A DNA stretch of 64,000 nt from the sequence record PX418922.1. One strand, 5' to 3'. The notes beneath the pieces are model-generated. The model made no database searches. It was not told where the DNA came from and worked only from the letters and a program-made list of their open reading frames with translations. Shown one piece after another: positions 3,143 through 64,000 of this stretch (positions within the stretch are counted from its first letter, which is position 1; each line of letters opens with the position of its first letter). The position numbers and the translations under genes are program-made. This stretch comes from a phage.

Positions 3143-5644
3143 ATGTCAACTACAATTACTAATTTACCCGAAACATCAAAAGTTAATGGTTCAGATTACC
3201 TGGTTTTAGATCAACCTGATAAAACTGTTAAAAGCACAGTTTCCAACTTTCTTACTGACACTGGGGTGGTTTTAGCCACCCAGTTGAAAGATACAGGTGG
3301 AGCAGATTTAATACAATCCTCAAATGGTAATACTGTTCAGGAAGAGTTGAATAACAATCTTCTTAATGATCGTGAACAGTGGCGTCGTAGTCTTGCTGAA
3401 GCGGGGTTAACACTTGTTGATGGTAGCTTTGAGGAGGGTGCTACATTAAATAATAATACTGATGCTGTTTGGTATATTGCAGGTGGACAGTGCTATACAT
3501 GGGGTGGTGCTTTCCCTAAAGAAGTTCCAGCTGGGTCAACCCCAGAAACATCTGGTGGCGTTGGTTCTGGGGCGTGGGTGAGCGTTGGTGATGCTAATTT
3601 AAGACAGGAATTAGCATCTTCATCTGGGTTTAAATTAATTGGTTCAGTATCTAATGTTACTCAATTAAGAACCATTACCGGTTCTGCTGGAGATAAAATA
3701 TTCCTCAAAGAATATAATACTGGTACCGGGAAAGGTGGGGGAATATTGACTGGTGTTAGCAGTCCGACACTGGTCGATGATGGCGTGAGCTTTTTCAGGG
3801 TTAACTCATCTTTTGGTTGGGCGCGAGATATATCTAAAGGTGTTAGCTTTTTTGATGGTGGTGTTATTGGTGATGCTGTTATTTCTGGTCCAAGTGTAAC
3901 TGGAACAGATGATACTGCCGCGGTTCTTCGCGTTTTTTCTGCCAGATTACCGATTAGGCAGAATACGCCGTTAAAAATGCGTCTAACGTCTTCTGTAACT
4001 TTAGGTAACGGTATTGTTGACTTGGTTGGTGCGGGGTCCACACATGTAGTATTTGTATTTGATCATTTGTCTGCCGGTTTAACTTTTGGCTCTGAGACTA
4101 ATTCGGAAACAAAATACCAGGGAACAGTGAAAGGCGTTTCTTGCGTTCGCCCTAACTACCTTGCATATGCTGGCTCAGCAGGTCCAAAATCTCTCTCATT
4201 TGGTAACTTCTCCCCTATTATTTTAGAAGACGTTAGAGAAGAAAACGCCATAGGATTTGGTATTTTCTTTGTATTCTGCCGGTCGGTCGTGGTTAGGAAA
4301 TGTTACGCCGGTAATCACGTCGGAACTTACTCTACCCCTAAATCTGGAACGGATGGCATCCATTTTTATAAATGTAACGACGTATGGGCCTACGATAATA
4401 TTTTAGAGGAAATCGGTGACGATGCGATATCATCAGGGTCATTTGATCCCCTGTTCCCTTGCTCAAATATAAACTTCATCAGGAATAAGATTTCAAGAGT
4501 GCACGGAAGTATGAAACTTTATAGTTTTGTGGACGGTGCGGAGATAGCCTATAACCGATTCCGCGTAGGTCATGAAGGAGGAGTTTATCTTACAAATGAT
4601 GCTAACTCTCTCGATAACTCTTATGTGAAGAATATAAAAATTCATCACAATGAGTTTTTTGATATTATTGGGAGTGAACCCAGTAATAACACATCTGGTG
4701 GCGTGCGTCTGAGATTCTGGCCTGATAATTCAGTACCAAATTCACGGGCAATTATAGACCAAATCTATATAACAGATAACCTAATTAGTGGCTGTGGCGC
4801 TGGCATTGCGGCAATAACACAGGATGCATACAAAAGATTTTCTAATATGTTCATTCGTAATAACTCGTTTCGTGCGGCACCACTCGATCTAACGGGTAGC
4901 AGGCCTTATATCCGCATACATCAATTTGATTATGAACTTGAGATTAGCGGAAATACAATGGTTAACTCGCATTCAGGGGGTATTGTTATAGATCAGGTCA
5001 ACGGCTCGGTTACCGCCACTTTTACGGCTCCAAAAGCTAAAATCAGCGGTAACACTATCGATGGGTACAGCCTGGCGTCAACGTTGGGCCAACTGGCAAA
5101 CGGTATTCTGGTTAGACCGTCTGATTACAATATCCTCTTAGAGATGGTAGGTAATCAGGTAAGGGGCCAGGCTATTAGTGATACCCTACCAGCAACACAA
5201 GGCATTTTGGTTAACAACGTTAGCCCACTGTCTTTTATTGAAGCAAACCAATCCGATAACAACATTGCTATCGGTGCAGGTTCTGCTGCCTATAAAGGTA
5301 TAGGTAAGACTAAGTTGGGAGCACCGAATGCTGGTACTCACTACGCTGGCAGTACCATTACTGATTATGTTGGTGGGAATCGTTACACTATCCTAACCAA
5401 CGGAACCTTTGGTACATTAAACGGTGTAACAGGTACTACTGTAGCCGGTAGTAAAACAGTTACTCTTAATAGCATAGCTGATGTGTATAGAGGTTGTGTT
5501 ATAGCTATAGCTGGTGTCTCTGGTAACAAACGTGTCTTGGATATACAAGGCACTACTATTAAGGTCGATGTAGCTTGTGACACTTCTGTATCAAACGGTG
5601 CAGTTAGCTACGTTGCCCCTACCTTTAGGACAGAAGCTATGTAA
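3143..5644 (+). CDS. tail fibre / tailspike-like protein
   Basis: 833-aa Gly/Ser/Thr/Asn-rich ORF; carries motif 'WYIAGGQCYTWGGAFPKEVPAGSTPETSGG..AWVSVG' (nt ~3464-3613) shared with two other fibre ORFs. Confidence 0.55.
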   Translation: MSTTITNLPETSKVNGSDYLVLDQPDKTVKSTVSNFLTDTGVVLATQLKDTGGADLIQSSNGNTVQEELNNNLLNDREQWRRSLAEAGLTLVDGSFEEGATLNNNTDAVWYIAGGQCYTWGGAFPKEVPAGSTPETSGGVGSGAWVSVGDANLRQELASSSGFKLIGSVSNVTQLRTITGSAGDKIFLKEYNTGTGKGGGILTGVSSPTLVDDGVSFFRVNSSFGWARDISKGVSFFDGGVIGDAVISGPSVTGTDDTAAVLRVFSARLPIRQNTPLKMRLTSSVTLGNGIVDLVGAGSTHVVFVFDHLSAGLTFGSETNSETKYQGTVKGVSCVRPNYLAYAGSAGPKSLSFGNFSPIILEDVREENAIGFGIFFVFCRSVVVRKCYAGNHVGTYSTPKSGTDGIHFYKCNDVWAYDNILEEIGDDAISSGSFDPLFPCSNINFIRNKISRVHGSMKLYSFVDGAEIAYNRFRVGHEGGVYLTNDANSLDNSYVKNIKIHHNEFFDIIGSEPSNNTSGGVRLRFWPDNSVPNSRAIIDQIYITDNLISGCGAGIAAITQDAYKRFSNMFIRNNSFRAAPLDLTGSRPYIRIHQFDYELEISGNTMVNSHSGGIVIDQVNGSVTATFTAPKAKISGNTIDGYSLASTLGQLANGILVRPSDYNILLEMVGNQVRGQAISDTLPATQGILVNNVSPLSFIEANQSDNNIAIGAGSAAYKGIGKTKLGAPNAGTHYAGSTITDYVGGNRYTILTNGTFGTLNGVTGTTVAGSKTVTLNSIADVYRGCVIAIAGVSGNKRVLDIQGTTIKVDVACDTSVSNGAVSYVAPTFRTEAM

Positions 5645-6241: not shown

Positions 6242-7728
6242 TGGACGAATATGGTTTGACAGATGCGGGATTTGTAATCCCGACTTTTGACGATGTTTTA
6301 AACAACTACATGACAGCAGTAAAAAACACATTTGGTGCAGATGCAGCCACTTCGGAAGATACTGTGATCGGGCAACTGTTTAGAATAATTGCATACACAG
6401 ATTACACATTGTGGGAAGGTATGCAAGGTGTTTATAATACTCAAACACTGGATGGTGCAGAAGGTATTTATCTTGACGAAATCTTTTCTAAACGCGGTTT
6501 CTATCGAGCAGGGGCAGCAGCAAGTACAGGTTATGCATATGTTAAGAGTAATAACAAAGCAGCTTGGACTTATGAGTTAGGCACGGATATTTACTTCAAC
6601 TCTGACAGTGATATGAACTACTATGTTAGCACACCAACTATGTTGAATGCTAAGATTGCAGCTTATCAAATATCTCGTGCTAATGCAACTGCTACAGGTG
6701 TTCCAAATATTACTTTTTATGCACAAAGTGCGGTGGATGGAGGACTAAACAGTAAAACACTTGCACCTGGTTCTTCTACATTTATAACCGATCTTGAAAC
6801 TTTTATCAAGGCAAATTTAACAGAAGCTGATCGTAGTCTCGTATTTTCTGATTCGGGTAACTTATCAGTTGGTTTTACTTCTTTAACCAGTGATACTCCA
6901 GTGGGACTGGTAACTCCTATTAAATTTTATGCTAGTGTTCCGGTTGGAACCAAGTGGAGTGAGATTCCGGTAGTTGCAGCAGAGAAAGGATACAACCCTG
7001 TTGGCGTAGAGTCTATTACAGGGATATCTTCTACCTTTACAGGTTATCTTGACAGTGGTAACTTCTATTCATTTTCTCCTGGTCGGGATGTTGAGACAGA
7101 CGCAGAATTCCGCTCTCGTTTCAATGACAACGTTGATGAAGCTAACGCAGGGACACGAGCAGCTATTGTGAAAGCTCTGCTACTCACAGATGGTGTTACT
7201 AAGGTGAAGATTTATGATAACCCTACATTACATGATCAAGAACATGCTCCAGCTATGACTTTCCAGACTATAGTTTATGGTGGCAGTGCAGAAGAAATTG
7301 CAAATGTTATCTATAAAACCAAACCAATCAACACTTTGACACACGGAACAACTAACATAACAGTTACAACAGAAGACGGAGGACAAGAAATTATTCGCTT
7401 CTCTCCTGGTGCTTCTGCTATGTATTCCGTAAAACTTGTTTATCAAACTGTCAACGGAACAACTTTAAGTGGAACAGAAAAACAAAACATCGTAGAAGCT
7501 CTACAAAACCTGCAAGCTTACTTTGAGTTAGGTTCTTCAGTAACGAACGATCAAATCAAAGGTGTTATTTATGCAGCACTTGCTTTTGGACGCTTGACTT
7601 CTCTTCGTGTTTATGTTAAACTTAATACTGAGGATGACAGTAAATATACAGAGAATAATATAGTTCCTACTTATAATGTTGTCCCTTCTTTTGACCTTGA
7701 TAACATTTCTTACGAGTATGGAGTGTAA
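6241..7728 (+). CDS. baseplate J-like protein
   Basis: 495-aa ORF; position and order (J-like, I-like, fibre, chaperone) resemble P2-type baseplate module; weak similarity to gpJ-family proteins by eye. Confidence 0.5.
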   Translation: MDEYGLTDAGFVIPTFDDVLNNYMTAVKNTFGADAATSEDTVIGQLFRIIAYTDYTLWEGMQGVYNTQTLDGAEGIYLDEIFSKRGFYRAGAAASTGYAYVKSNNKAAWTYELGTDIYFNSDSDMNYYVSTPTMLNAKIAAYQISRANATATGVPNITFYAQSAVDGGLNSKTLAPGSSTFITDLETFIKANLTEADRSLVFSDSGNLSVGFTSLTSDTPVGLVTPIKFYASVPVGTKWSEIPVVAAEKGYNPVGVESITGISSTFTGYLDSGNFYSFSPGRDVETDAEFRSRFNDNVDEANAGTRAAIVKALLLTDGVTKVKIYDNPTLHDQEHAPAMTFQTIVYGGSAEEIANVIYKTKPINTLTHGTTNITVTTEDGGQEIIRFSPGASAMYSVKLVYQTVNGTTLSGTEKQNIVEALQNLQAYFELGSSVTNDQIKGVIYAALAFGRLTSLRVYVKLNTEDDSKYTENNIVPTYNVVPSFDLDNISYEYGV

Positions 7729-24735: not shown

Positions 24736-26511
24736 TTAATAATTGCTATCCGTAGGCAAATTAGCAGGATTGTTGAAATACTGCTCTTTGTCATGCAGGG
24801 TTGCAGTTCTAATGTCATAGTAAAACTGCCCTGCCGGACCAGTTTCTGAGAACTCACGGTTTTTTAGGATAAAGCAATGAGTCGTATTGCGTTCTACAGG
24901 GTCTTCAGCGGCTTTATCTCGTTCCAAAGCCAAGGTAATACCAGCACCTTTAGCCAAGAAACTACTACCCATTGCATCGTCCTCTGTTAAGTGTTCATTG
25001 CCACCATTGGCCGATTTCTTAACGTGTGAGATGACAATAATAGTTATAGCATACTCTTTCATGATGCGCTTCAACCATGTTGCTAACTCTTCCTGGGCTT
25101 GAACATCCATACCAGAAAGCAAATCAGAATAAGGGTCGATAACAAGAATTGTTACTCCAAAATAGATGATCATCTCCAAAACTTTTTCTTTGATAGACTC
25201 CACATCTGCTCCACGATCATCACACACATAAAAACGTGGTGATCCATCTTCTCTTTCGTAAAAATCTAGGATTTTTTCTTTATTCTCTTCCAAGATTTGA
25301 AATTTCTCTTCCGGTGTTTTCCTGTGTAGAGGAATATGCAGGAACGAGGACAACAGGTTACGAGAATATTTCTTATAAGTTGCTTCCAAGGACAGAATAC
25401 CTAGGGTATGTTCTGGGTGCGCAACAATAATATGTTTGGTGATCTCGTTCACCATCAAAGTTTTACCGATACTGGTCTTTGCCAGGATAACTGTAATCTC
25501 TTCCTCTACTAAACCACCACCCAGCATATTTGCAGCAACACGCATAAAAGGAGGCAAGGTAATCATCTTGGATTCCAAGCATTCTAATGCGGCTTCATAC
25601 AAGACATTAGAAGCATAAACACCTGCTGGGGTGTATAGACGAGCACTCCAAAAAGCTTTTACGAAATCTTTTGCACGACCTTCTTCCAGATACTGATTGG
25701 CATCCTTAAGATCCATCTGCATACGATAGACTTTGTTACGAGGCAGCACCTTAACAATATTTTCAAATGCCTCATTACCTGCTTTGTCATTATCCATGCA
25801 AACAATAATCTTCTTAAATTTTTCAAAGAAAGGATATTGTGCCTGAACTTGTTTATACATACTGGTTTCACCAGTTGTGCCACTAACTACTGCTGGAAGT
25901 TCATACTTGTTGTCCAAGTTTTCAGATAGCATTTGATAAGCTGCCAGAGCATCGTGTTCACCACCTGTAATTACCACAGTATGAGAACGGTCTGCAAAAC
26001 GAATTTGTCCAAAAAGATCTACATCTTTACCTACTTGACCAATAGGTTTACTGAAATCTTTAGGATGAATACGACGCTTAAAACCAACCAATTCTTTACC
26101 GATAGTAGTTGGATATAAACAACTTTCTACTACCATCTGATCCCCTTCCTGACGGTATTCATAACGAACACCATAGAAAGATGAAACTTTTTCTTTAATG
26201 CCTCGATAACCACGTGGGTTGGTTGATGTTTCTTGAACAATTTTACGATGAATCTGTTTATTAAATTCCGAACCCACAATCTCCTCCTCTTCTAAAACTT
26301 CACCATTTTCTCGTAACCATTCTACGCTAGGAATAGTGTATTCACACGCAAAGCACTTAGCACCTTTATGCTCTCCATTAGAATCTAATCCATAAACCAT
26401 CAGGTTATTACGAGAGCGATCCTTGCCATTTTTCATGCAGCGCGGACAACCTGTATGCCCTTCCTTGCTAAGATCAACATCAAATCCATATTTAGTTATA
26501 ATGTGCGACAC
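24736..26511 (-). CDS. bifunctional DNA primase-helicase (T7 gp4-like)
   Basis: N-terminal Cys4 zinc finger 'CPRCM..CFACEY', central TOPRIM-like region, C-terminal Walker A 'TSIGKT'. Confidence 0.8.
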   Translation of the reverse strand: MSHIITKYGFDVDLSKEGHTGCPRCMKNGKDRSRNNLMVYGLDSNGEHKGAKCFACEYTIPSVEWLRENGEVLEEEEIVGSEFNKQIHRKIVQETSTNPRGYRGIKEKVSSFYGVRYEYRQEGDQMVVESCLYPTTIGKELVGFKRRIHPKDFSKPIGQVGKDVDLFGQIRFADRSHTVVITGGEHDALAAYQMLSENLDNKYELPAVVSGTTGETSMYKQVQAQYPFFEKFKKIIVCMDNDKAGNEAFENIVKVLPRNKVYRMQMDLKDANQYLEEGRAKDFVKAFWSARLYTPAGVYASNVLYEAALECLESKMITLPPFMRVAANMLGGGLVEEEITVILAKTSIGKTLMVNEITKHIIVAHPEHTLGILSLEATYKKYSRNLLSSFLHIPLHRKTPEEKFQILEENKEKILDFYEREDGSPRFYVCDDRGADVESIKEKVLEMIIYFGVTILVIDPYSDLLSGMDVQAQEELATWLKRIMKEYAITIIVISHVKKSANGGNEHLTEDDAMGSSFLAKGAGITLALERDKAAEDPVERNTTHCFILKNREFSETGPAGQFYYDIRTATLHDKEQYFNNPANLPTDSNY

Positions 26512-26802: not shown

Positions 26803-27746
26803 TATAGCTCCTCAAATAAAAGTCTACGACGCTCATTCAACACATCAATGTGATAATGAGTCCTGACATACTTAGCTAATGCTAATCCTTTCTCCATGCA
26901 AACATCGGGAGCACTTAATAAGTATTCCGTAATATCTTTCCACTCGGAAGGTGTTTCAGCAAAGAATAACAAATCTTTAAACTCTTGTGTATGATAATTC
27001 TCACGAGGAGAACAGATCAAAGGTAAACCCTTAGCACCTGCCTCAAGAATTTTAAGATTGCTTTTTGCATTATTAAACACGTTATCAAGCAATGGCGCAA
27101 GACTGATTTGATGACCATCGTAAGATTCCATGTAGTTGGCATATGGTCTTACACCTTCATAAACACAAGTTGGTGCTACATTTTCTCTGATCACAGACCA
27201 TTCACGACTACTTAAAACTTCAGAACCCCTACGAAAACCACATATTGTAAGATCTTTACCAAAATCGGGCAAGATAGCCAAATCTTGTTTATGTGTTTCA
27301 CTTCCAGCCCAGACTAATGGAGTTTTGGAGTAGCGATCACGGGTCAACACAAATTGACCTTCATCGTAAGGAAGACCATTAGGGATTATGTGCACATTAT
27401 CATTGTATTGTGAAAGTTCAACTTGCAAAGCAGGTGTCGTAGTTGTAACAAGATCGCTGTGCTCTAAAAACCATTTTAAATGTTCACGAATACCTGATTC
27501 AAAAATACCTTCTAACATGTGTCCTTTTGGAATAACTAAAGAGTCATCCAAATCCATAACCATTTTAAAGCCTAGGTTTTTAAGGGCTAAAAAGCCCTCT
27601 TTACCTTTTGTTGGCACTCCGTTAAAAACGAAAACGTTGTGTTTAGGTTGTGAAGAGAACTGCCTTGAGTAAGGCAGCACTACCCTATGGAAATCGCAGA
27701 CACTATAATTGATTCCATTACGATTGTCAAGAATTATTTGTCCCAT
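26802..27746 (-). CDS. glycosyltransferase-like protein (GT-B-like), paralog A
   Basis: 314-aa ORF; C-terminal 'NLKILEAGAKGLPLICS' resembles GT-B sugar-donor-binding region; paralogous to 27754-28701. Confidence 0.4.
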   Translation of the reverse strand: MGQIILDNRNGINYSVCDFHRVVLPYSRQFSSQPKHNVFVFNGVPTKGKEGFLALKNLGFKMVMDLDDSLVIPKGHMLEGIFESGIREHLKWFLEHSDLVTTTTPALQVELSQYNDNVHIIPNGLPYDEGQFVLTRDRYSKTPLVWAGSETHKQDLAILPDFGKDLTICGFRRGSEVLSSREWSVIRENVAPTCVYEGVRPYANYMESYDGHQISLAPLLDNVFNNAKSNLKILEAGAKGLPLICSPRENYHTQEFKDLLFFAETPSEWKDITEYLLSAPDVCMEKGLALAKYVRTHYHIDVLNERRRLLFEEL

Positions 27747-27753
27747 ACTTCAC

Positions 27754-28701
27754 CTACAAACTTTCAATAACCTGGCGTCGCAACTCGTTTGCATCTGCCA
27801 GATTATAATGTGTTCGAACATGTTCAGCCAAGAACAAGCCACGATCTTCCCGATAGTTTGGATTGCGAAGAAGCTTAACAATTTCGTAATGCCATTCTGC
27901 TTTATTCTCTGCGTAAGCAACAGCGCGAGCATCTACAGGGTTAAAATAAGGTAATACCTTAGAACAAACAATTGGAATACCTTTTGCTCCAGCTTCCAGG
28001 ATTTTGAGATTACTTTTACAATTATTAAAATCGTTATCTACCAAAGGAGCTATAGCAATAGCATGACTTTCGTAAACACTCATGTAATTATCTAAATCTT
28101 TTACAGCGGCTTTATATTTGGCATTTGGTAAATTTCTGCGAATCTTAATCCACTCTTGTCCCGTGATGCTTTGTGATGTTTCATATCCCGCAATAGTAAG
28201 AAGTTCATCATCGAAAGTATTAGAGACTAGTCGTAAGTCTGGTTCGTGACTAGCACCGCCAGCCCATACAACAGGGGTACCGGATGAACGATCATTTGAC
28301 AAAGTGAATTGTCCGCTATCAAAAGGAAGTGCATTTCGGATCACAACAACATTCCTATTTAAGTGACGGATCTTATATGCCAAATATTCCGTAGTCACAA
28401 TAACCACATCAGCAAGCTTAACCATAGCTACAATAGCATGAGTGTTTGACTCGTATAGACTTGCTAAATAATGTTCTGGATTAAGTTGGTAAAAATCATC
28501 TAAGTCTACAACAACCTTAACACCTTGACGTTTCAAAGATAAAACGTATTCTGCACCTTTAGAGTGGATACGGTTAAACACAACAACATCTTTCTTAGGT
28601 TGAATATTATTGTTGTTAAATGGTATAACAATACGATGATAGTCACAACCGCTGTGAGGTTTTGCATCAATTTTTAGTTTAGACCATTTTTTATTTGACA
28701 T
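27754..28701 (-). CDS. glycosyltransferase-like protein (GT-B-like), paralog B
   Basis: 315-aa ORF, 'NLKILEAGAKGIPIVCS'; clear paralogy with 26802-27746 over full length. Confidence 0.4.
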   Translation of the reverse strand: MSNKKWSKLKIDAKPHSGCDYHRIVIPFNNNNIQPKKDVVVFNRIHSKGAEYVLSLKRQGVKVVVDLDDFYQLNPEHYLASLYESNTHAIVAMVKLADVVIVTTEYLAYKIRHLNRNVVVIRNALPFDSGQFTLSNDRSSGTPVVWAGGASHEPDLRLVSNTFDDELLTIAGYETSQSITGQEWIKIRRNLPNAKYKAAVKDLDNYMSVYESHAIAIAPLVDNDFNNCKSNLKILEAGAKGIPIVCSKVLPYFNPVDARAVAYAENKAEWHYEIVKLLRNPNYREDRGLFLAEHVRTHYNLADANELRRQVIESL

Positions 28702-29374
28702 GTGCTAGTGCCTCCTCATAGGAAATTCGGATTTTCCCATTTTTAATATCCTCTAAAGATGCTTTATATTCTTCCCAGTTAATCCCAATAGCAGCCTCTT
28801 TCTCTTCTTTTGTCAGGTTAGCAAAAGGCATAGGATTGTTTCCAAAAACATCGTCTGGGTGGATATAAGCCATGATACGAAGTGGACAAGGTGTTGCCTG
28901 AATACCATGATTCAAACCAGCAGCTTGCAAACGGTGTCCCCATTCAGCATCTTCAAAACCATAACCGTGAGTGTAAGGACGGAAATAACCCATCTTCTCA
29001 ACAACGGAACGAGAATACATTGCAAATTGACACATTGCAAGTTCCCAGAGAATAACTTCTCCTTTGCTTCCAACAACTTTATCTTTGAAATACTCCGGCA
29101 TACCAAAGAAATCCCATCCTCCAGAGACAGCTTGATCTACAAAGTATGTTTCCCATCCCTCCATGACTGGGTAGCAATCATCGTCAAAAATAAACCAATA
29201 ATCATAACCTTCTTCATAAAACTGGTGCATAAGTTCATTCCTGGCATAAGCTACACCTTTACGATCTGGATCGTTGAATACTCGAAAATCTGCACGTGGA
29301 TCTGTTACAAGGTAGTCTTTAAGTGGACGGACACCTACAGTGATAACACCCACTCCGATTTTAATATTTTCCAT
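28691..29374 (-). CDS. glycosyltransferase (GT-A fold-like)
   Basis: 'FIFDDDCYP' DxD-type motif and 'GYGFEDAEWGHRL'. Confidence 0.45.
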   Translation of the reverse strand: MENIKIGVGVITVGVRPLKDYLVTDPRADFRVFNDPDRKGVAYARNELMHQFYEEGYDYWFIFDDDCYPVMEGWETYFVDQAVSGGWDFFGMPEYFKDKVVGSKGEVILWELAMCQFAMYSRSVVEKMGYFRPYTHGYGFEDAEWGHRLQAAGLNHGIQATPCPLRIMAYIHPDDVFGNNPMPFANLTKEEKEAAIGINWEEYKASLEDIKNGKIRISYEEALAHVK

Positions 29375-29382
29375 TTTCTCTC

Positions 29383-29946
29383 CTAAATAGTTTTACTGTG
29401 ATCATGACAGTGTAATAAATGATGTATAGACCGTTGAGGATCTGTTTGACCTAATCTGTAAATGTGAAACAGATACATTCCCCGCATCAATCCTAACCTC
29501 TTTCCTTTTTCATGTAAAGTGCGAGAGAAAATTAAGTCGAATTGGATAGATTTTTCTTCGAAAGGAATTTCATTCCACAATGATTTTCTAAAAAGCAAAA
29601 AGAAACCTGCCAGAGGTGTTCCGAAAGGAACTTCTTCAACACTTACTTTATGATATTCCCTTGCAATCTTAGCATATTCTATATGGTTTAGAATATCGGG
29701 ATCATCGTTAATTTGGTTAGAGAAAAGCTGATAACCACTACCTAACCTGTTACAAGTTGCACCTATTACATCAAAAGGCGGGTTTGACATAACAAGCTCT
29801 TCAAGCATAGATGGTTGATCAGGTAGGAGGAACATTGTATCGGTATCTCTTAAACACACCCAACTATCGTCTGGAAGAACGGCAATAGCTTCATTGATAG
29901 CCTTGCCGATATTTCCTGTCAGATAGGGAGTAATATAATAAATCAT
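29383..29946 (-). CDS. possible glycosyltransferase (GT-A-like) / hypothetical
   Basis: 187-aa ORF, 'CLRDTDTMF' DxD-like motif; weak. Confidence 0.3.
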   Translation of the reverse strand: MIYYITPYLTGNIGKAINEAIAVLPDDSWVCLRDTDTMFLLPDQPSMLEELVMSNPPFDVIGATCNRLGSGYQLFSNQINDDPDILNHIEYAKIAREYHKVSVEEVPFGTPLAGFFLLFRKSLWNEIPFEEKSIQFDLIFSRTLHEKGKRLGLMRGMYLFHIYRLGQTDPQRSIHHLLHCHDHSKTI

Positions 29947-39071: not shown

Positions 39072-39090
39072 TATTTTCTCCTTTCTCTTT

Positions 39091-39149
39091 GCGGGGAACC
39101 ACTCCCCGCCTCATGTGATACATCTTACTCTATTCTAAAACTTTGTCAA
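39091..39149 (-). promoter_or_regulatory. sigma70-type promoter plus 5' hairpin driving TerC gene (same architecture as 60.7-64 kb array)
   Basis: minus strand reads 'TTGACA-16nt-TAAGAT gtatcacatgaggcggggagtggttccccgc ...aaaggagaaaataATG'. Confidence 0.6.
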
Positions 39150-58970: not shown

Positions 58971-59499
58971 TGATTATGTATTCTTCTTTTCACATAAAGA
59001 TGTTTTTAGTAATTGGTATATTGCACCCTTTACAGAAACCGAACCAGGTTACAATCAGACATTTAATTGTGTCGAACAATACATGATGTGGCGTAAAGCT
59101 TTGCTTTTTAATGACCACAACACTGCACAGGCTATTCTGACTCATAGTTTGATACGGAAAGATGAGAAGATCCAAGCTTATTACAAACGTATGGGTAAGG
59201 CAGTGTCGGATTTTGATAACAACGTATGGGAAGAGAACCGTGAGCGTATTGTTATGCGAGGTTTATGCTTGAAATATGTACAGAATCCAGATTTGTATGC
59301 AGACTTACACCTTTACCAATACAAAACGTTTGTTGAAGCAAGCCCCTACGATAAGGTTTACGGAATTGGAATGGGGATGTATGAACCAGGGGTGCTAAAC
59401 CCTGCCACCTGGAAAGGGCAGAATCTTTTAGGTAAATATCATAATAAACTGATCGAAATACTTTTCCCAGACAAAATACCGCAAAGACGATATTTGTGA
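58957..59499 (+). CDS. NADAR (YbiA-like) domain protein
   Basis: 'FFFSHKDVFSNWY...FNCVEQYMMWRKALLF...EASPYDKVYGIGMG' matches NADAR/DUF1768 signature pattern. Confidence 0.5.
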   Translation: MRITDDYVFFFSHKDVFSNWYIAPFTETEPGYNQTFNCVEQYMMWRKALLFNDHNTAQAILTHSLIRKDEKIQAYYKRMGKAVSDFDNNVWEENRERIVMRGLCLKYVQNPDLYADLHLYQYKTFVEASPYDKVYGIGMGMYEPGVLNPATWKGQNLLGKYHNKLIEILFPDKIPQRRYL

Positions 59500-59554
59500 T
59501 ATTTTAACTTTTTTCATTTTTAGAACAAAGGTGTCACTTTGTAGCACAGAAATA

Positions 59555-59590
59555 AGGCTCCTACAGCACCGTAGAGAGCCTGTTATTTTG
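59555..59590 (+). terminator. candidate terminator hairpin after NADAR gene
   Basis: 'aggctcctacagcaccgtagagagcct' stem-loop followed by 'gttattttg'. Confidence 0.45.
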
Positions 59591-59721
59591 TCCTATACAA
59601 ACCCTTGTCTTTTTCAGTTTGCATCACTAGGATTCGATCTAAGTAGGTTCCTGAAGGTCTACCAATAAGATTAAAGGTTATCTCAAATTACCACTACCTG
59701 TTATCTCAAAAATTCCTCAAA

Positions 59722-59919
59722 TTATTTAAACTTTTTAAGAATTTACAAAAGTGAAAGTTGAAAACCAAAATTTAAAGTTTAGGAAAATTATCTTAAAATG
59801 TCAGATACAAAACAAAACTCAAAAGTCAAGGAAAATTTTAAAAATTTTGCGCGCCCACAGTATTTAAAGTTTTTTTGCTTTTACAAAAATGAAAGTACAA
59901 AAGCAAAATTTAAAGTTTA
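59722..59919. repeat. two ~60-bp AT-rich direct repeats (iteron-like)
   Basis: 'tttacaaaagtgaaagttgaaaaccaaaatttaaagttta' (59742-59781) vs 'tttacaaaaatgaaagtacaaaagcaaaatttaaagttta' (59880-59919), each preceded by 'atttaaa[c/g]ttttt'. Confidence 0.6.
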
Positions 59920-59940
59920 CAAAAATTTATGCAGATGGGA

Positions 59941-59957
59941 ATGAGAAGAGTTCTCAT
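59941..59957. promoter_or_regulatory. perfect 7-bp inverted repeat
   Basis: 'atgagaagagttctcat'. Confidence 0.4.
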
Positions 59958-59962
59958 GTGGA

Positions 59963-59988
59963 AATGCAAATGATAATGATTCGCATTT
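59963..59988. promoter_or_regulatory. Fur-box-like palindrome 1
   Basis: 'aaatgcaaatgataatgattcgcattt' contains GATAATGAT matching first half of Fur consensus GATAATGATAATCATTATC. Confidence 0.4.
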
Positions 59989-60024
59989 AGGTTTATAAAT
60001 GAGATTGATTCTTATTTAATAAAG

Positions 60025-60047
60025 TAAATGATAATCATTCTCATTTA
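60025..60047. promoter_or_regulatory. Fur-box-like palindrome 2
   Basis: 'taaatgataatcattctcattta' matches Fur consensus at about 16/19 positions and is near-palindromic. Confidence 0.5.
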
Positions 60048-60304
60048 GAGAATGACGCGCAGGGGCGGTGTTTGTCTCGCGCTCCCGTGTCCCCTCGCCA
60101 TGTACTAAGAATAACAGATCCAGCCAGGAAAGCAAGCGATTATTTTATCTTTACATTTCTTTACAAATATATAGCGCCCAGCCTACCGGCGATCAACCTT
60201 CCAACCAGTGCCCCTGGTATGTTAGCCCCGCCTTTACGCCGTGGGGTGGCGCTTCCTCTTCTGTATGTAAAACAGTATAAGCCCTATCCCTGGGCTTGTC
60301 AAGA

Positions 60305-60571
60305 TTATTTTTTGTTTTCTTGCCAGGTCAGGACACCTAGCCAAAAATGAATATCACCTTTTCCCCAATGTGGTATATTGCTTTCTTTCCCACCTTCACG
60401 CGCCCAGGTAAAACCGCCCGTGTAACTTTGTAATTGATAACTATCCTCGACCTTATAATCTGATAGGTTGAGAACGGTTTCAACCTTTAAGCCCGTTGCG
60501 CTTGCTACCTGGTGCACCGTGCCGCCTTGCCAGCCCAATGAGTGCATAAGATGTAATGTAGTATTTGTCAT
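60305..60571 (-). CDS. hypothetical protein in GC-richer block
   Basis: 88-aa ORF; local composition visibly GC-richer than flanking phage DNA. Confidence 0.3.
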   Translation of the reverse strand: MTNTTLHLMHSLGWQGGTVHQVASATGLKVETVLNLSDYKVEDSYQLQSYTGGFTWAREGGKESNIPHWGKGDIHFWLGVLTWQENKK

Positions 60572-60680
60572 GGTGTCGCCCTTTCTTTGTTGTGCGCCCT
60601 GGTTGGCGCGGTAGAAAGATGATAGCCCTTTCCTTTATATATAGCAAGCAAAAAGAAAATAAAAAAGATTGAAAAAGTGG

Positions 60681-60738
60681 TTGACGTTCGCCAGGTGGCG
60701 GCATAATATTTACCACGTAGCGCGGCAATGGTGCCGCT
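60681..60738 (+). promoter_or_regulatory. early-type promoter P1 with 5' hairpin
   Basis: TTGACG-17nt-TAATAT then 'gcggcaatggtgccgc' hairpin. Confidence 0.6.
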
Positions 60739-60758
60739 CACTATTTGGAGTTAAGATC

Positions 60759-60956
60759 ATGGCAACATTGCACATTGTGGCGAAAGCTGGACAAATCAAC
60801 GTAATAGTAAACGGTTTTACTGAGTTCAGTCATCCCCAGGATGATCATGAAACGGTTTTATCTTTCATTGATTCCCTGTTAGAAATGGGAGTCATTACAG
60901 AAGACCAGCACGCTACAAAATGCAAGCGCGTTAATCAAATTGCAGGGATAGAATAA
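60759..60956 (+). CDS. hypothetical small early protein
   Basis: 65-aa ORF starting 'MATLHIV' after RBS 'ggag' (track start 60669 lies upstream of promoter). Confidence 0.5.
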   Translation: MATLHIVAKAGQINVIVNGFTEFSHPQDDHETVLSFIDSLLEMGVITEDQHATKCKRVNQIAGIE

Positions 60957-60962
60957 AAAGTA

Positions 60963-61017
60963 TTGACAACAAACAACAACCTGATAAGATGTATCACATA
61001 GGGGCGACAAGCGCCCC
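60963..61017 (+). promoter_or_regulatory. early-type promoter P2 with 5' hairpin
   Basis: TTGACA-16nt-TAAGAT 'gtatcacata' then 'ggggcgacaagcgcccc' hairpin. Confidence 0.6.
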
Positions 61018-61041
61018 GCCTAACAGAAGAGAGAAATCATC

Positions 61042-61314
61042 ATGGCATCATATAGCGCAACAATGATCGTAACTGGCACCACTGGTAAACCTATGAGCGG
61101 TGGCGGATCTTTCGCTAATATTAATATTGACGGGCGCTTATCCCTGGACGCAGCGATCACCGTGGCGCGGGAAACATTTAAGAAAGAATGTAAATTCAAT
61201 AAACAAGATTATCTCGGTTTCGCTATTGAAAAAACCGCGCGCTTTGTTGATTATAAAAGCCCGAAAATGGTTGATACTACACTGAAAGCGCAAGATGTAG
61301 CCTTTTTGCTTTAA
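61042..61314 (+). CDS. hypothetical small early protein
   Basis: 90-aa ORF 'MASYSATMIV...'. Confidence 0.5.
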   Translation: MASYSATMIVTGTTGKPMSGGGSFANINIDGRLSLDAAITVARETFKKECKFNKQDYLGFAIEKTARFVDYKSPKMVDTTLKAQDVAFLL

Positions 61315-61326
61315 GGCTTGACATTA

Positions 61327-61382
61327 ACGAATAATTTGTTAATATGTTACATAAAGCGGGAATAGTTCCCGCTATTTGTAAG
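61327..61382 (+). promoter_or_regulatory. early-type promoter P3 with 5' hairpin
   Basis: TTGACA-16nt-TAATAT then 'agcgggaatagttcccgct' hairpin. Confidence 0.6.
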
Positions 61383-61390
61383 GTGGTAGA

Positions 61391-61648
61391 ATGTTTTACA
61401 TCAAATTAAAAGGTCACGTGATCGCGTTCAAAGATAACGCTTTTTACAGATTAGCAAAATATGCGTTAATACATCCCCACTATGTTTATATAAGGGGGCG
61501 TGATGAAATAAATATTTTTGATCAAACAACATGCGAAAACATCGAGATCCGCAAGGTTGGCGTACGTGATTATCGTACATCTTTCTACCCTTGCAAGGAT
61601 TCAGCAAGTCTTTTTAAAGTATGCCAATTGTTGAAAAAAGGTGGTTAA
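61391..61648 (+). CDS. hypothetical small early protein
   Basis: 85-aa ORF. Confidence 0.5.
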   Translation: MFYIKLKGHVIAFKDNAFYRLAKYALIHPHYVYIRGRDEINIFDQTTCENIEIRKVGVRDYRTSFYPCKDSASLFKVCQLLKKGG

Positions 61649-61649
61649 T

Positions 61650-62207
61650 ATGGGCCGCGAATATGTGATCCAGTCTTGGGTAAAACATGAAGCAGATGAT
61701 CCGCGCATCATTCCCGATCATCTTATCGATGAATCCACGGGATATAGCGGTGAGCAAATAGGTAACAGATTAGCACGTAGTAACGGCAACGTAAAAGCGC
61801 GTTATGTGCGCCCTGGCTGGCTGGCAAATGGTAACGCTGATTTATCCAGTGCGGAAGATGCGAGCGACGGCGCGAAAGATAATCCTTTGTACAAAATTGA
61901 TCCGGCTTTTCGTGTCCTGGATGAATACCCCAGCAAGATAGCGGCGCTCGATCAGGCCCTGGAAAGTAAGCGCATCACCTGGACCGCTTACAACATGGCA
62001 AAAAACGTACTTGATGGTAAATTGATTCAAGCTGAAAGAAAATTAGCCAAAATTGCAGCCATAACCCAGGAGGAAGACGAGGAGACAACGGAAGAGGAAG
62101 AGTACGAAGAGATCCCGCCGTTGTTGTGTGTTGATGCTTTCCCTGATTATCAGCCGACAGAGGAAGAAAAAAGGATCGCACTAGAAAACTTTGAAAATAG
62201 TCTTTGA
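61650..62207 (+). CDS. hypothetical early protein with acidic C-terminal region
   Basis: start at ATG after RBS 'aaaggtgg' (track 61641); 'EEDEETTEEEEYEE' tract. Confidence 0.5.
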   Translation: MGREYVIQSWVKHEADDPRIIPDHLIDESTGYSGEQIGNRLARSNGNVKARYVRPGWLANGNADLSSAEDASDGAKDNPLYKIDPAFRVLDEYPSKIAALDQALESKRITWTAYNMAKNVLDGKLIQAERKLAKIAAITQEEDEETTEEEEYEEIPPLLCVDAFPDYQPTEEEKRIALENFENSL

Positions 62208-62259
62208 CATATCGCCGCCACTGGCATAATATTTACCACGTAGGGCGGCAATGGTGCCG
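62203..62259 (+). promoter_or_regulatory. early-type promoter P4 with 5' hairpin
   Basis: TTGACA-17nt-TAATAT, near-identical to P1 over ~40 bp, then 'ggcggcaatggtgccgc' hairpin. Confidence 0.6.
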
Positions 62260-62289
62260 CTCATAGTGAAATTATGCAAGAGGTTTGCA

Positions 62290-62388
62290 ATGATTAATAA
62301 AGAAAATAGCTTGACGGTTGGAACGATTAACGCTATCATTCTTGCCGTTCCATTTTGGATTGTATTAGCGGCTATTATTTTCTAAAAA
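62290..62388 (+). CDS. 32-aa hydrophobic peptide (not in supplied track)
   Basis: 'MINKENSLTVGTINAIILAVPFWIVLAAIIF' downstream of P4 with RBS 'agagg'. Confidence 0.3.
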
Positions 62389-62394
62389 ATATTC

Positions 62395-62455
62395 TTGACA
62401 ACGTTTTTTAATCTGATAAGATGTATCACATAGGGCGGCGGAATACTTCCCCGCC
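62395..62455 (+). promoter_or_regulatory. early-type promoter P5 with 5' hairpin
   Basis: TTGACA-16nt-TAAGAT 'gtatcacatagggcggcggaatacttccccgcc'. Confidence 0.6.
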
Positions 62456-62476
62456 AAAACAAAAAAGGGTAACACA

Positions 62477-62839
62477 ATGAGCAAGCAAATCAATACTATC
62501 ATGTTTAATCTGGTATCTTTCCGCGATGATATGAAAAATTTACCACGTGAAACGGTTGATATTCATGTTTCAGCTTATCGCGCCCTTATTGATATGTTAC
62601 CGCTAAAACGTGATCAACATGCCGCTAATATGATGCTTAATGCTATGCTTAAAAAGATGATTCAAACGGATCTCACCCTGGCGTATGAGTATCAAGGGCG
62701 CTTATATGCAACTTACAACAAGGCGGTACCTGGTCTGGGAAGTACCGAAGAGTTGCACGGCTTAAACCTGGATCAAAACACTTGGGATAGTATGCGCCGC
62801 GTTATGGTATGGGCCGAAAGCGGTAAAATTTACGAATAA
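62477..62839 (+). CDS. hypothetical early protein
   Basis: 120-aa ORF. Confidence 0.5.
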   Translation: MSKQINTIMFNLVSFRDDMKNLPRETVDIHVSAYRALIDMLPLKRDQHAANMMLNAMLKKMIQTDLTLAYEYQGRLYATYNKAVPGLGSTEELHGLNLDQNTWDSMRRVMVWAESGKIYE

Positions 62840-62845
62840 AAACGG

Positions 62846-62905
62846 TTGACATTGTTTAAAATTCTAGTATAGTTTACCACATAGGGCGGGAAGTGGTTTC
62901 CCGCC
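62846..62905 (+). promoter_or_regulatory. early-type promoter P6 with 5' hairpin
   Basis: TTGACA-16nt-TATAGT then 'gggcgggaagtggtttcccgcc' hairpin. Confidence 0.6.
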
Positions 62906-62927
62906 AACAATGAAAAAGGTTATCATC

Positions 62928-63293
62928 ATGGCTATTAATATTAATGTTTCCGCTTATGCTACCCTGGCTAACACGGCTAAAATTGAATTATCCAGCATTG
63001 AGGCGGTGCATATTAGCGCCCGTCGCTGGTTTCAACGGTCCTACGGTAACACATATTTTTCTTTAATGGTTGACGTTGAGATCGGCGGTAAACTGATCGA
63101 GGTGGTTAACGTTCCGTTTCAATATGGCTATGGTGATCATTTTGATACCGTCGCCCTAGAAGAGTTTAGCAAGGTTATCAACCTGGAAGGTAAAGAGTTT
63201 TCAAATTATGCCTACCTTTCCCGTTTTTGCCGTGACAATGGGATCACTGTATACAGTCATGCGAGCGATGTAAAACGTAAAAAAGATTTATAA
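62928..63293 (+). CDS. hypothetical early protein
   Basis: start placed at 'MAININ...' with RBS 'aaaaagg' (track 62910); N-terminus resembles 63713 ORF. Confidence 0.5.
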   Translation: MAININVSAYATLANTAKIELSSIEAVHISARRWFQRSYGNTYFSLMVDVEIGGKLIEVVNVPFQYGYGDHFDTVALEEFSKVINLEGKEFSNYAYLSRFCRDNGITVYSHASDVKRKKDL

Positions 63294-63299
63294 AAAGCA

Positions 63300-63358
63300 T
63301 TGACAGCACGAATAAAAAGAGTAAACTGTATTACATAGAGAGCGGGAACACTTCCCGC
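63300..63358 (+). promoter_or_regulatory. early-type promoter P7 with 5' hairpin
   Basis: TTGACA-16nt-TAAACT then 'agcgggaacacttcccgc' hairpin. Confidence 0.55.
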
Positions 63359-63382
63359 CTCACTGAAAAAGAGAGAAAAATC

Positions 63383-63622
63383 ATGGCTAAATCTAAAATG
63401 TACAACGGTCACAAAAACAAAACTCATTGGAATGTAAGCCTTTGGATTAATAACGATGAATCGTTATACCGGTTGGCCCAAGATTTTATTAACGCTAATG
63501 CTAATCGTAATGATGCGGCGCGGGATATGATGCTTTTTCTGGAACAAACTGGACAAGATAAAACGCCAGACGGTTTCAAATATAGCACTACTGCGATCCG
63601 TGCCGCGATGGTTGGAATGTAA
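63383..63622 (+). CDS. hypothetical small early protein
   Basis: 79-aa ORF. Confidence 0.5.
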   Translation: MAKSKMYNGHKNKTHWNVSLWINNDESLYRLAQDFINANANRNDAARDMMLFLEQTGQDKTPDGFKYSTTAIRAAMVGM

Positions 63623-63631
63623 TAAAAACAG

Positions 63632-63691
63632 TTGACAACGTTTAAAATTAGTGTAAGATGTATCACATAGGGCGGGAAGTGGTTTCCCGCC
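63632..63691 (+). promoter_or_regulatory. early-type promoter P8 with 5' hairpin
   Basis: TTGACA-16nt-TAAGAT then 'gggcgggaagtggtttcccgcc' hairpin (identical to P6 hairpin). Confidence 0.6.
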
Positions 63692-63712
63692 AAAACAAAG
63701 AGATTAAAGATT

Positions 63713-63940
63713 ATGGCTATCAATATTGTTCGCGTATCCGGCACCGTTGGCACTTCCCAGGTTATTGCAGTTGTAACAAACAAAAAGATTAATGATGTAT
63801 GTGAGATCTTGAATAAGTGGGCTATTGCTAATTTTGGGGAATATGCAAGCGTCGAGTACATCGAATCCTACCAGGTGCCAACCATCAGCCTAACCGATCT
63901 CAACGTTGATCGCCTGTTATGCCTGGATGAATTGATCTGA
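63713..63940 (+). CDS. hypothetical small early protein
   Basis: 75-aa ORF 'MAINIVRVSG...'. Confidence 0.5.
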   Translation: MAINIVRVSGTVGTSQVIAVVTNKKINDVCEILNKWAIANFGEYASVEYIESYQVPTISLTDLNVDRLLCLDELI

Positions 63941-63949
63941 AAAAGATTG

Positions 63950-64000
63950 TTGACACCGGAAAGAAAAAGAGTAAACTGTATTACGTAGGGCGGCAATGGT
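63950..64000 (+). promoter_or_regulatory. early-type promoter P9 (hairpin truncated by window end)
   Basis: TTGACA-16nt-TAAACT 'gtattacgtagggcggcaatggt'. Confidence 0.5.

Follow-up and report, generated by a model that had tools for sequence, protein, structure and literature searches.

An array of promoter–hairpin gene cassettes in a phage genome resembles the PeSL units of T4-like phages

Promoter-early stem-loops (PeSLs) have been described for RB49/phi1 (Arbiol et al. 2010, PMC2839356) and for PST/T4 and nt-1/KVP40 (Comeau et al. 2014, PMC4122927). A PeSL consists of an A/T-rich tract, a sigma70-type early promoter and a G...C-rich stem-loop, is repeated between the small ORFans of hyperplastic regions, and falls into one of five subclasses according to the position of the stem-loop (PMC2839356, PMC4122927). 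PeSLs are tied to indels that distinguish close relatives, and the crossovers have been mapped to the interval from the -10 to the ATG (PMC2839356, PMC4122927). Experiments in RB49/phi1 showed that the promoters are active, that one stem-loop behaves like a terminator and that mini-circles are excised, and the authors read the stem-loop as a terminator or attenuator and the repeats as recombination sites (PMC2839356, PMC4122927). In the literature examined, PeSLs are treated only for T4-likes and elsewhere in passing. Here we analyse a 64,000-nucleotide stretch of phage DNA (PX418922.1, hereafter the window), whose last 3.3 kb hold an array of nine promoter–hairpin units, each set before one or two small genes. 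The architecture is of the PeSL type already described for T4-like phages, here in another lineage, and hence not an element of a new kind; an earlier note on the same DNA had described the array and missed this match (PMC2839356, PMC4122927).

A PeSL-like array at the end of the window

The array (60681-64000) comprises nine co-oriented units on the plus strand, labelled P1–P9, the ninth cut by the window end, as seen by reading the sequence, by a consensus scan and by a both-strand regular-expression scan. Every unit follows the same order: an A-rich tract (for example AATAAAAAC) within which the stop codon of the preceding gene sits, TTGAC(A/G), a spacer of 16 or 17 nucleotides (nt), a TAnnnT -10 hexamer, a conserved gTAtCAC(A/G)TAG, the hairpin, a purine-/A-rich leader with a Shine–Dalgarno (SD) sequence, and a small ORFan. 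The -35 hexamers have their first base at 60681, 60963, 61318, 62204, 62395, 62846, 63300, 63632 and 63950, and the -10 hexamers, from P1 to P9, are TAATAT, TAAGAT, TAATAT, TAATAT, TAAGAT, TATAGT, TAAACT, TAAGAT and TAAACT. The promoters are sigma70-type, as the earlier note had claimed, and near-consensus, with matches at 9–11 of 12 positions (4–5 of 6 in the -10 alone) and, in three of them, a TG extension. All nine copies lie where the note had placed them, with the spacers it gave; its nine copies of TTGACA come down to eight, P1 carrying TTGACG instead.

The GC-rich hairpin reported soon after each -10 is likewise there, beginning 10–12 nt past the hexamer with a stem of 6–10 bp. For the eight complete hairpins, folding from the predicted +1 yields minimum free energies between -11.4 and -15.3 kcal/mol; against dinucleotide shuffles, the z-scores run from -1.2 to -4.3. 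The start codon of the small open reading frame (ORF) lies 17–27 nt past the hairpin end. Such an ORF does follow every complete unit, but its size is corrected from the first estimates to 65, 90, 85, 31, 120, 121, 79 and 75 aa; the 185-aa ORF listed among them is present but lacks a promoter of its own, being co-transcribed behind the 85-aa ORF of P3. The almost exact duplications noted between copies also hold, P1 and P4 having 41 nt in common at 98% and P6 and P8 73 nt at 85%.

The array is confirmed, and the clustering of its units exceeds chance. In the window, TTGACR-N16/17-TAnnnT is found 23 times, where shuffles give 3.66 ± 1.9; ten of these occurrences fall within the last 3.3 kb, and one of the ten, at 62311, lies inside an ORF and does not count as a unit. 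The whole-unit profile matches the units at E = 1e-10 to 1e-17.

By its matches, the window belongs to a Phapecoctavirus (phAPEC8-like) genome. The array region matches 201 phage records, the best at 95–98% identity, and the close matches are all Phapecoctavirus, a group of phAPEC8-like Stephanstirmvirinae that are E. coli myophages of about 150 kb. Several records named 'Campylobacter phage' (B15, C3 and others; about 146–151 kb) are 95% identical to the region, and their host labels look doubtful. In the closest complete genome (OR437326.1, 148,445 bp), the array continues in the same style for about 4 kb past the point at which the window ends, so that the window end probably holds the first half of a larger array. 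The motif search of a whole genome that the earlier note had proposed, run on this relative with a profile built from 19 copies, gives 19 matches. Eighteen lie on one strand in a single 7-kb array (121,455-128,467), and the nineteenth, the only copy outside it, stands on the opposite strand at 99,534. Its counterpart is a tenth copy in the window, an isolated unit on the minus strand (39075..39149, starting from 39149) that reads TTGACA-16-TAAGAT and then gtatcacatgaggcggggagtggttccccgc, with a folding energy of -14.3 kcal/mol and a covariance-model match of 58.6 bits.

Arrays of 9 to 20 or more copies of the unit are present in six genomes besides the window, phi92-type phages included: the unit profile finds 18–20 copies in two other Phapecoctavirus arrays and 9–14 in three Justusliebigvirus (phi92-type) arrays. 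A short blastn query finds the unit in 147 records, none of them outside this phage group, and an exact 22-mer of the unit core occurs in only 2 IMG/VR contigs, so that nothing points to a wide distribution outside these phages. The motif is partly present in rV5-like phages: in one Vequintavirus (rV5-like) early region, a downstream hairpin stands on only some promoters. The Vequintavirus YP-6 (L010) has a different repeated intergenic unit, atttatttttagatggccTTGACTccagggccatcaataaagTAAACT, at 2847-2927, 3468-3555, 3802-3877 and 6470-6560, with the -35 in the loop of a 10-bp stem; this stem-over--35 unit forms a second PeSL-like subclass, in rV5-like phages. A literature search on the transcriptomics and promoters of Phapecoctavirus, phi92 and rV5 returned only generic promoter counts and a promoter table without hairpins: the phi92 record annotates ribosome-binding sites only, the rV5 paper has a table of predicted promoters that extends 7 nt downstream and shows no hairpins, and a Phapecoctavirus paper gives promoter counts only.

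Set beside the PeSLs of RB49/phi1, the array has the same components in the same order, with an A/T-rich tract, a near-consensus sigma70 promoter, a stable GC-rich stem-loop by the promoter and 5′ of the SD and ATG, an SD and a start codon, all repeated between small ORFans of a plastic early region; that these ORFs are non-essential is judged only from their presence or absence among relatives. In both systems relatives differ by insertions, deletions and replacements of cassettes with crossovers in the motif, and several stem-loop positions coexist. Here the junctions in or beside the motif are those of the 275-, 219/508- and 361-bp indels, of one replacement and of the P1 and P2 hairpin swaps described below. 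Three things differ. The host lineage is Stephanstirmvirinae rather than Straboviridae, and the motif sequence is unrelated. One subclass dominates here, with the stem starting at about +4 inside the transcript, whereas the commonest forms in RB49/phi1 have it in the spacer or over the -10. For RB49/phi1 the activities were shown by experiment; those of the present units are predicted from the sequence.

A selected RNA structure at the predicted transcript start

The hairpin is a selected structure of the sense-strand RNA. Among 83 copies from seven arrays there are 39 distinct hairpins, built from 26 different 5′ arms and 30 different 3′ arms, and the arms that belong together fold at a mean of -12.3 kcal/mol, against -9.0 for chimeric arms taken from other copies. 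A covariance model built from seven real copies and searched over both strands of 299 kb gives 58 matches, all in the arrays or at the isolated copy. In the covariance alignment, standard pairs fill 97.9% of the cells and compensatory changes are found at five of the eight pairs (24 cells); none of 500 shuffles reaches any observed pairing measure, and sliding the 3′ partners cuts pairing to 33–85% and removes nearly all compensatory changes. Of 45 sequences, 22 have G-C and 17 have G·U as the basal pair. A G·U pair is valid in the sense-strand RNA only, the other strand giving A·C, and is a mismatch in DNA; the form under selection is therefore the transcript and not a symmetric DNA palindrome. 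The structure corresponds to no known RNA family: when 59000-64000 was scanned against Rfam at E <= 1, the only hit, to RF03142, was at chance level (19.6 bits against a cutoff of 37.8).

The position of the hairpin relative to the start of transcription can be predicted from the sequence after the -10. Position 7 is C in 57 of 68 unique copies and position 8 is a purine in 63 (A in 43, G in 20). A pyrimidine at -1 and a purine at +1, at such a distance from the -10, form the usual start context; +1 is therefore assigned there, which places the start of the stem at about +3 to +5. Between the predicted +1 and the stem there are 3–4 unpaired nt in 51 of the 68 copies and 0–2 in 16. The hairpin is thus predicted to occupy roughly +4 to +25, right at the beginning of every primary transcript, where the earlier note had also put it.

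That note had further held that the hairpins lack a U-run and are more likely 5′-UTR elements than terminators, and both points are supported. On average, 1.1 of the 8 nt that follow the stem are T (two or fewer in 63 of 68 copies), the tail is A-rich, and a terminator scan picks up none of the nine window hairpins; with no T-run after the stem, a canonical (Rho-independent) terminator was rejected. Real hairpin-plus-T-run terminators occur elsewhere in a relative's array. In EC001 (L001) such terminators lie at 24892-24946 and 27992-28040, within and at the end of the array, and a similar GC hairpin with a short T-run is found at 27432-27470. One terminator in this array is aagggcgcaccaagcgccctttcttttt and two are of the type aaggggcgcactaagcgcccttt, and they are unlike the unit hairpins. 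After the EC001 array come about 1.5 kb without an annotated gene (28040-29535) and then a tightly packed gene block.

Other known elements near phage promoters fit poorly. The lambda nut and HK022 put sites are, like the unit hairpins, short RNA structures just downstream of phage early promoters, but each early operon has just one of them, which influences termination at distant downstream sites, whereas here there is one 6–10-bp hairpin per gene and no terminator between most cassettes that would have to be overcome. A nut site combines boxA with a 5-bp boxB that has a GNRA-like loop, and put is made of two stem-loops over about 70 nt; each unit here has a single hairpin, no consistent boxA-like sequence 5′ of it and no Rfam match. 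The sequence 'CGCTCACAACA' after some hairpins is boxA-like but lies 3′ of the hairpin and partly in the stem, and is absent from most copies. A sigma70-dependent pause or Q-type element was rejected because the first transcribed bases, 'TAGGGC', do not include the T6 on which a -10-like element depends. RNase III sites need roughly 20 bp, and stems of 6–10 bp are far too short for one.

Cassette turnover and the role of the unit

Gain, loss and exchange of cassettes were followed across four Phapecoctavirus and three Justusliebigvirus arrays. Breakpoints were read one by one; the automatic breakpoint-to-motif distance undercounts, the profile missing units of other subclasses. The clearest exchange concerns the hairpin of P2. 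Within the genus the P2 gene is 93–97% identical and its promoter 96–100%, and the hairpin between them is swapped: it is ggggcgacaagcgcccc in the window, gggcgggaagtggtttcccgct in EC001, gggcggcggaatggtccagccgctc in ECO340P1 and KKP 3954, and gggcggcaatagtgccgctc in phi92 and KKE7M, which makes four different hairpins on one gene and promoter across relatives. Some hairpin is always found at the same place at this site, its identity being exchanged among copies. A hairpin swap is also seen at P1 of ECO340P1, and in KKE7M the P5 promoter of the window stands in front of the P2 gene. The ECO340P1 array (L006, 10267-10350) and L007 (9913-9992) also contain an intergenic unit of another subclass, TTGACTtttcgttatagcgccTTACAATgggcgctatag, with the -10 in the loop of an 8-bp stem, inside the same array.

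Whole cassettes come and go as well. At P6, a 275-bp cassette made of a 180-nt gene and a degenerate promoter is present in EC001 and ECO340P1 and absent from the window and KKP 3954, and the junction of this indel is a common catcATGGCTA. Indels of 219 and 508 bp join at a common ATGATCACTTTTGC, and two unrelated proteins of the relatives therefore both begin MITFA. A 361-bp cassette with promoter, hairpin and ORF is found in EC001 only, and one ORF is replaced from its start codon to the next unit. Between the two genera the order of cassettes changes from A B C D E F... to B E C F..., and phi92-type phages carry the cassette of P5 and its 120-aa ORF at a different array position. No resolved breakpoint falls inside the body of an ORF, each being located within a unit, at a start codon or where a cassette ends; since the breakpoints take several positions within the unit, they fit homology-driven exchange and not a fixed site-specific crossover. 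Many cassette ORFs start with ATG-GCN (MA...), among them those at 60759, 61042, 62928, 63383 and 63713 in the window and others in relatives. The conserved unit thus seems to extend into the first codons, so that recombination could create chimeric N-termini. The modular expansion of a gene cassette that the earlier note had proposed is supported by these gains, losses and hairpin swaps between close relatives.

With moderate confidence, we read the units as PeSL-type early cassettes in which the hairpin serves as a stabiliser and insulator of the 5′ leader and the repeats drive cassette shuffling. The unmodified host RNA polymerase holoenzyme would fire each near-consensus sigma70 promoter right after infection, with the A-rich tract acting in a UP-like manner, and each cassette would be a self-contained expression unit with one, rarely two, small ORFans. 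An mRNA 5′ end only 3–4 nt before the hairpin would limit access of RppH and of 5′-end-dependent RNase E, and each early mRNA would be stabilised and insulated in this way, its leader being shielded by the hairpin from whichever gene follows. When transcription reads through from upstream promoters, this hairpin could also stand in the resulting RNA as an intercistronic barrier to 3′ exonucleases. The repeated unit of 45–100 nt would at the same time offer homology patches to the phage recombination system, leading to gene conversion, deletion, insertion and translocation of cassettes, as in the 'modular shuffling' model of PeSLs.

Secondary structure at the 5′ end is known to stabilise E. coli mRNAs, since RppH and RNase E need single-stranded 5′ ends (PMC3997798), and the 5′-terminal stem-loops of ompA and papA are described stabilisers of this kind (Emory, Bouvet & Belasco 1992, as cited in PMC3997798). 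In common with these leaders, each unit has a stable hairpin upstream of the ribosome-binding site and separate from it, which is predicted to lie a few nt from the mRNA 5′ end. The ompA and papA leaders are single cases with measured half-lives, whereas here 18–20 copies per genome share a sequence and would act on half-life in the same way. The predicted 3–4 unpaired 5′ nt lie at the limit usually given for protection of an mRNA, about 4 or fewer.

Several points weigh against a stabilising leader. The Bacillus enzyme (RppH) needs at least 2 unpaired 5′ nt and prefers 3 or more (PMC3997798); the 3–4 unpaired nt here may still admit RppH, and protection could be small. There are other intergenic units, in relatives' arrays, in rV5-like phages and at 60274-60302 of the window, whose stem-loop covers the -35 or the -10 or falls within the spacer. 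In these the hairpin lies outside the 5′ leader, which suggests a role common to all positions, for example on upstream transcripts or at the DNA level. The constant position at +4 could reflect common descent and gene conversion of one repeat, and the conserved 5′ flank (AUAGGGCGG) and loop (AAUGGU or AAUAGU) hint that the sequence itself is recognised, something that an element serving stability alone would not require. The alignment from which pairs were counted was fitted to the model structure and hence leans towards it; the arm-swap comparison, which is independent of that alignment, agrees with the covariance result. A literature search found no 5′-end, 3′-end or expression data for this phage group (Stephanstirmvirinae), and the start sites and the 'early' timing are therefore predictions.

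The alternative that survives best, though we regard it as unlikely, is that the hairpin is mainly an attenuator or terminator of RNA polymerase arriving from the upstream cassette, which would insulate cassettes and prevent a pile-up of transcription, its location in its own leader being incidental. This would agree with RB49/phi1, where inserting a PeSL stem-loop between a promoter and lacZ lowered expression to much the same extent as did the rrnB T1 terminator (PMC2839356). It would also suit the units of this phage group whose stem-loop lies over or inside the promoter, so that only upstream transcripts contain it, as well as the constant place of the hairpin between the upstream stop codon and the downstream start codon. 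The A-rich tail without a U-tract speaks against it, as do the canonical hairpin-plus-T-run terminators that the same array has where ends are expected. A strong terminator at +4 to +25 would moreover abort the unit's own transcript, and 18 terminators in a row would make 18 promoters independent, which is possible.

A sequence-specific role is a further alternative, to which we assign a rather small probability: the hairpin with its 5′ flank and loop would be the binding site of a phage or host RNA-binding factor that co-regulates the early set. The factor could act by timed translational shut-off, by cleavage of the T4 RegB type, by protection from phage-induced decay of host mRNA, or by antitermination of the lambda N-boxB type. 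The flank (A/G)UAGGGCGG and the loops AAUGGU, AAUAGU and AAGUGGU recur on otherwise different stems, the loop being ATGG, TAG, TGG or ATAG in 27 of the 39 distinct hairpins; the basal G·U marks RNA as the selected form, and the unit is limited to one class of genes while other sigma70-type promoters in the window lack it. However, loops and flanks vary, with ACAAG, TAC, CAC and CTAT loops and stems that begin AGCGGG or GGGGCG, and gene conversion explains the likeness among copies equally well. No candidate binding protein was identified, the array ORFs being all of unknown function, and there is neither a boxA-like partner nor an Rfam match. A form of this proposal that we likewise hold to be doubtful makes the hairpin, with its (A/G)UAGGGCGG flank and AAUGGU-type loop, an 'early-mRNA tag' read by such a factor. 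If this were true, the factor would switch off the immediate-early ORFan set or spare ORFan mRNAs from phage-induced decay, and the tag would be the marker of a post-transcriptional regulon that travels with every shuffled cassette.

Integron attC cassettes offer a parallel at the level of DNA: they too form arrays in which promoter-proximal cassettes of one gene each have an inverted repeat and are gained and lost whole. Integron cassettes are promoterless, with attC 3′ of the gene, folded as single-stranded DNA for IntI and used at a fixed crossover, whereas each cassette here has its own promoter, a repeat 5′ of the gene, variable breakpoints and G·U pairs that point to RNA. That the inverted repeat acts in DNA, as a hairpin or cruciform site for a recombinase (attC-like) or as a palindromic operator for a repressor of the early promoters, is very improbable. 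It would suit the integron-like succession of cassettes with one gene and one inverted repeat apiece, and within this early block a relative also carries a gene for a serine recombinase ('DNA invertase'). The PeSL authors considered a DNA-binding recombination protein possible, and +4 to +25 is a typical position for operators. Against it, the breakpoints are scattered over the -35, the interval from the -10 to the stem, the leader and the start codons, as expected of homology-driven exchange with no fixed crossover, and the compensatory stem changes and the basal G·U in 17 of 45 sequences argue against a palindromic operator and a symmetric DNA structure.

The array extends the PeSL idea from T4-like phages to a second and unrelated set of large E. 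coli myophages, namely phAPEC8-like, phi92-like and, in part, rV5-like phages, many of which are under development for phage therapy. It provides a reading rule for early regions, one promoter–hairpin unit marking one accessory gene cassette, and explains why this part of the genome diverges between otherwise near-identical isolates. Early ORFan arrays are the usual hunting ground for host-takeover and anti-defence genes. The approximately 40 natural stem variants at a regular +4 form a test set for whether the stem-loop acts on the downstream message, the upstream message or DNA, and the units may be compact, portable and strong expression modules of possible use in synthetic biology.

Individual cassettes and the stretch upstream

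The cassettes are given here in their order on the plus strand. P1 (promoter and leader, 60681..60758) has its -35 TTGACG at 60681-60686, a 17-nt spacer, its -10 TAATAT at 60704-60709 and a predicted +1 at G60717; its hairpin (core 60722-60737, extended pairing 60717-60744) folds at -11.4 kcal/mol and is matched by nhmmer at E = 4.9e-11. The 65-aa ORF behind it (60759..60956) belongs to phrog_23268 and has no Pfam match. In P2 (60963..61041), the -35 lies at 60963-60968, the -10 TAAGAT with its TG extension at 60985-60990 and the predicted +1 at A60998, followed by a hairpin at 61001-61017 (-12.7 kcal/mol, z -3.45) and a 90-aa ORF (61042..61314; phrog_8099). P3 (61318..61390), with the -35 at 61318-61323, the -10 TAATAT at 61340-61345, a predicted +1 at about 61351-61353 and a hairpin at 61355-61373 (-12.4 kcal/mol), precedes the block of two ORFs (61391..62207), of 85 aa (61391-61648; phrog_17947) and 185 aa (61650-62207; phrog_16605).

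The -35 of P4 (62204..62289) lies at 62204-62209, where it overlaps the upstream stop codon; the -10 TAATAT is at 62227-62232, the predicted +1 at G62240 and the hairpin at 62243-62262 (-14.4 kcal/mol). The hydrophobic 31-aa ORF behind it (62290..62385) is annotated as a 96-nt gene in relatives and has no family match in PHROGs or Pfam. P5 (62395..62476) has the -35 at 62395-62400, the -10 TAAGAT, again with a TG extension, at 62417-62422, a predicted +1 at A62430 and a hairpin at 62434-62455 (-14.0 kcal/mol), and leads to the 120-aa ORF (62477..62839; phrog_7352). P6 (62846..62927) matches the consensus at 11 of 12 positions, with the -35 at 62846-62851, the -10 TATAGT at 62868-62873 and a predicted +1 at A62881; its hairpin at 62885-62905 (-15.2 kcal/mol) stands before a 121-aa ORF (62928..63293; phrog_6246).

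P7 (63300..63382) carries its -35 at 63300-63305, its -10 TAAACT at 63322-63327, a predicted +1 at A63335 and a hairpin at 63338-63361 (-15.3 kcal/mol, z -4.29). The 79-aa ORF that follows (63383..63622; phrog_871) matches DUF7249 (PF23907, E = 1.4e-13). P8 (63632..63712; -35 at 63632-63637, -10 TAAGAT at 63654-63659, predicted +1 at A63667) has the hairpin with the best covariance-model match (63671-63691; -15.2 kcal/mol, 66.7 bits) and a 75-aa ORF (63713..63940; phrog_13850). Of P9 (63950..64000), the window includes the -35 at 63950-63955, the -10 TAAACT at 63972-63977, the predicted +1 at G63985 and an incomplete hairpin from 63988, which is complete in a relative (L001, 23626 onward). The PHROG families matched by the array ORFs are all of unknown function (ten ORFs tested), and DUF7249 is all that Pfam adds.

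Upstream of the array, on the minus strand at 60274-60302, lies a strong divergent promoter, TTGACA-17-TATACT (an 11/12 match), with the inverted repeat AGCCCAGGGATAGGGCT in its spacer. The repeat doubles as the terminator-like hairpin and T-run of an 88-aa minus-strand gene (60571..60305), and the whole is a composite terminator and promoter of the commonest RB49 PeSL subclass. The promoter points into the non-coding 59500-60270, in which there is no evident ORF and no Rfam match. A segment TTTACAAAAGTGAAAGT...CAAAATTTAAAGTTTA occurs twice in the non-coding stretch, at 59742-59800 and 59880-59935, about 138 nt apart, and could be origin-like or regulatory. At 59968-60049, within the ~800-nt non-coding stretch just 5′ of the promoter array, there are 2.8 tandem copies of a 29-nt unit with the cores AAATGATAATGATTCGCATTT and AAATGATAATCATTCTCATTT. 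These cores closely resemble the E. coli Fur box consensus GATAATGATAATCATTATC, and the repeats could serve iron-dependent control or act as a Fur decoy.

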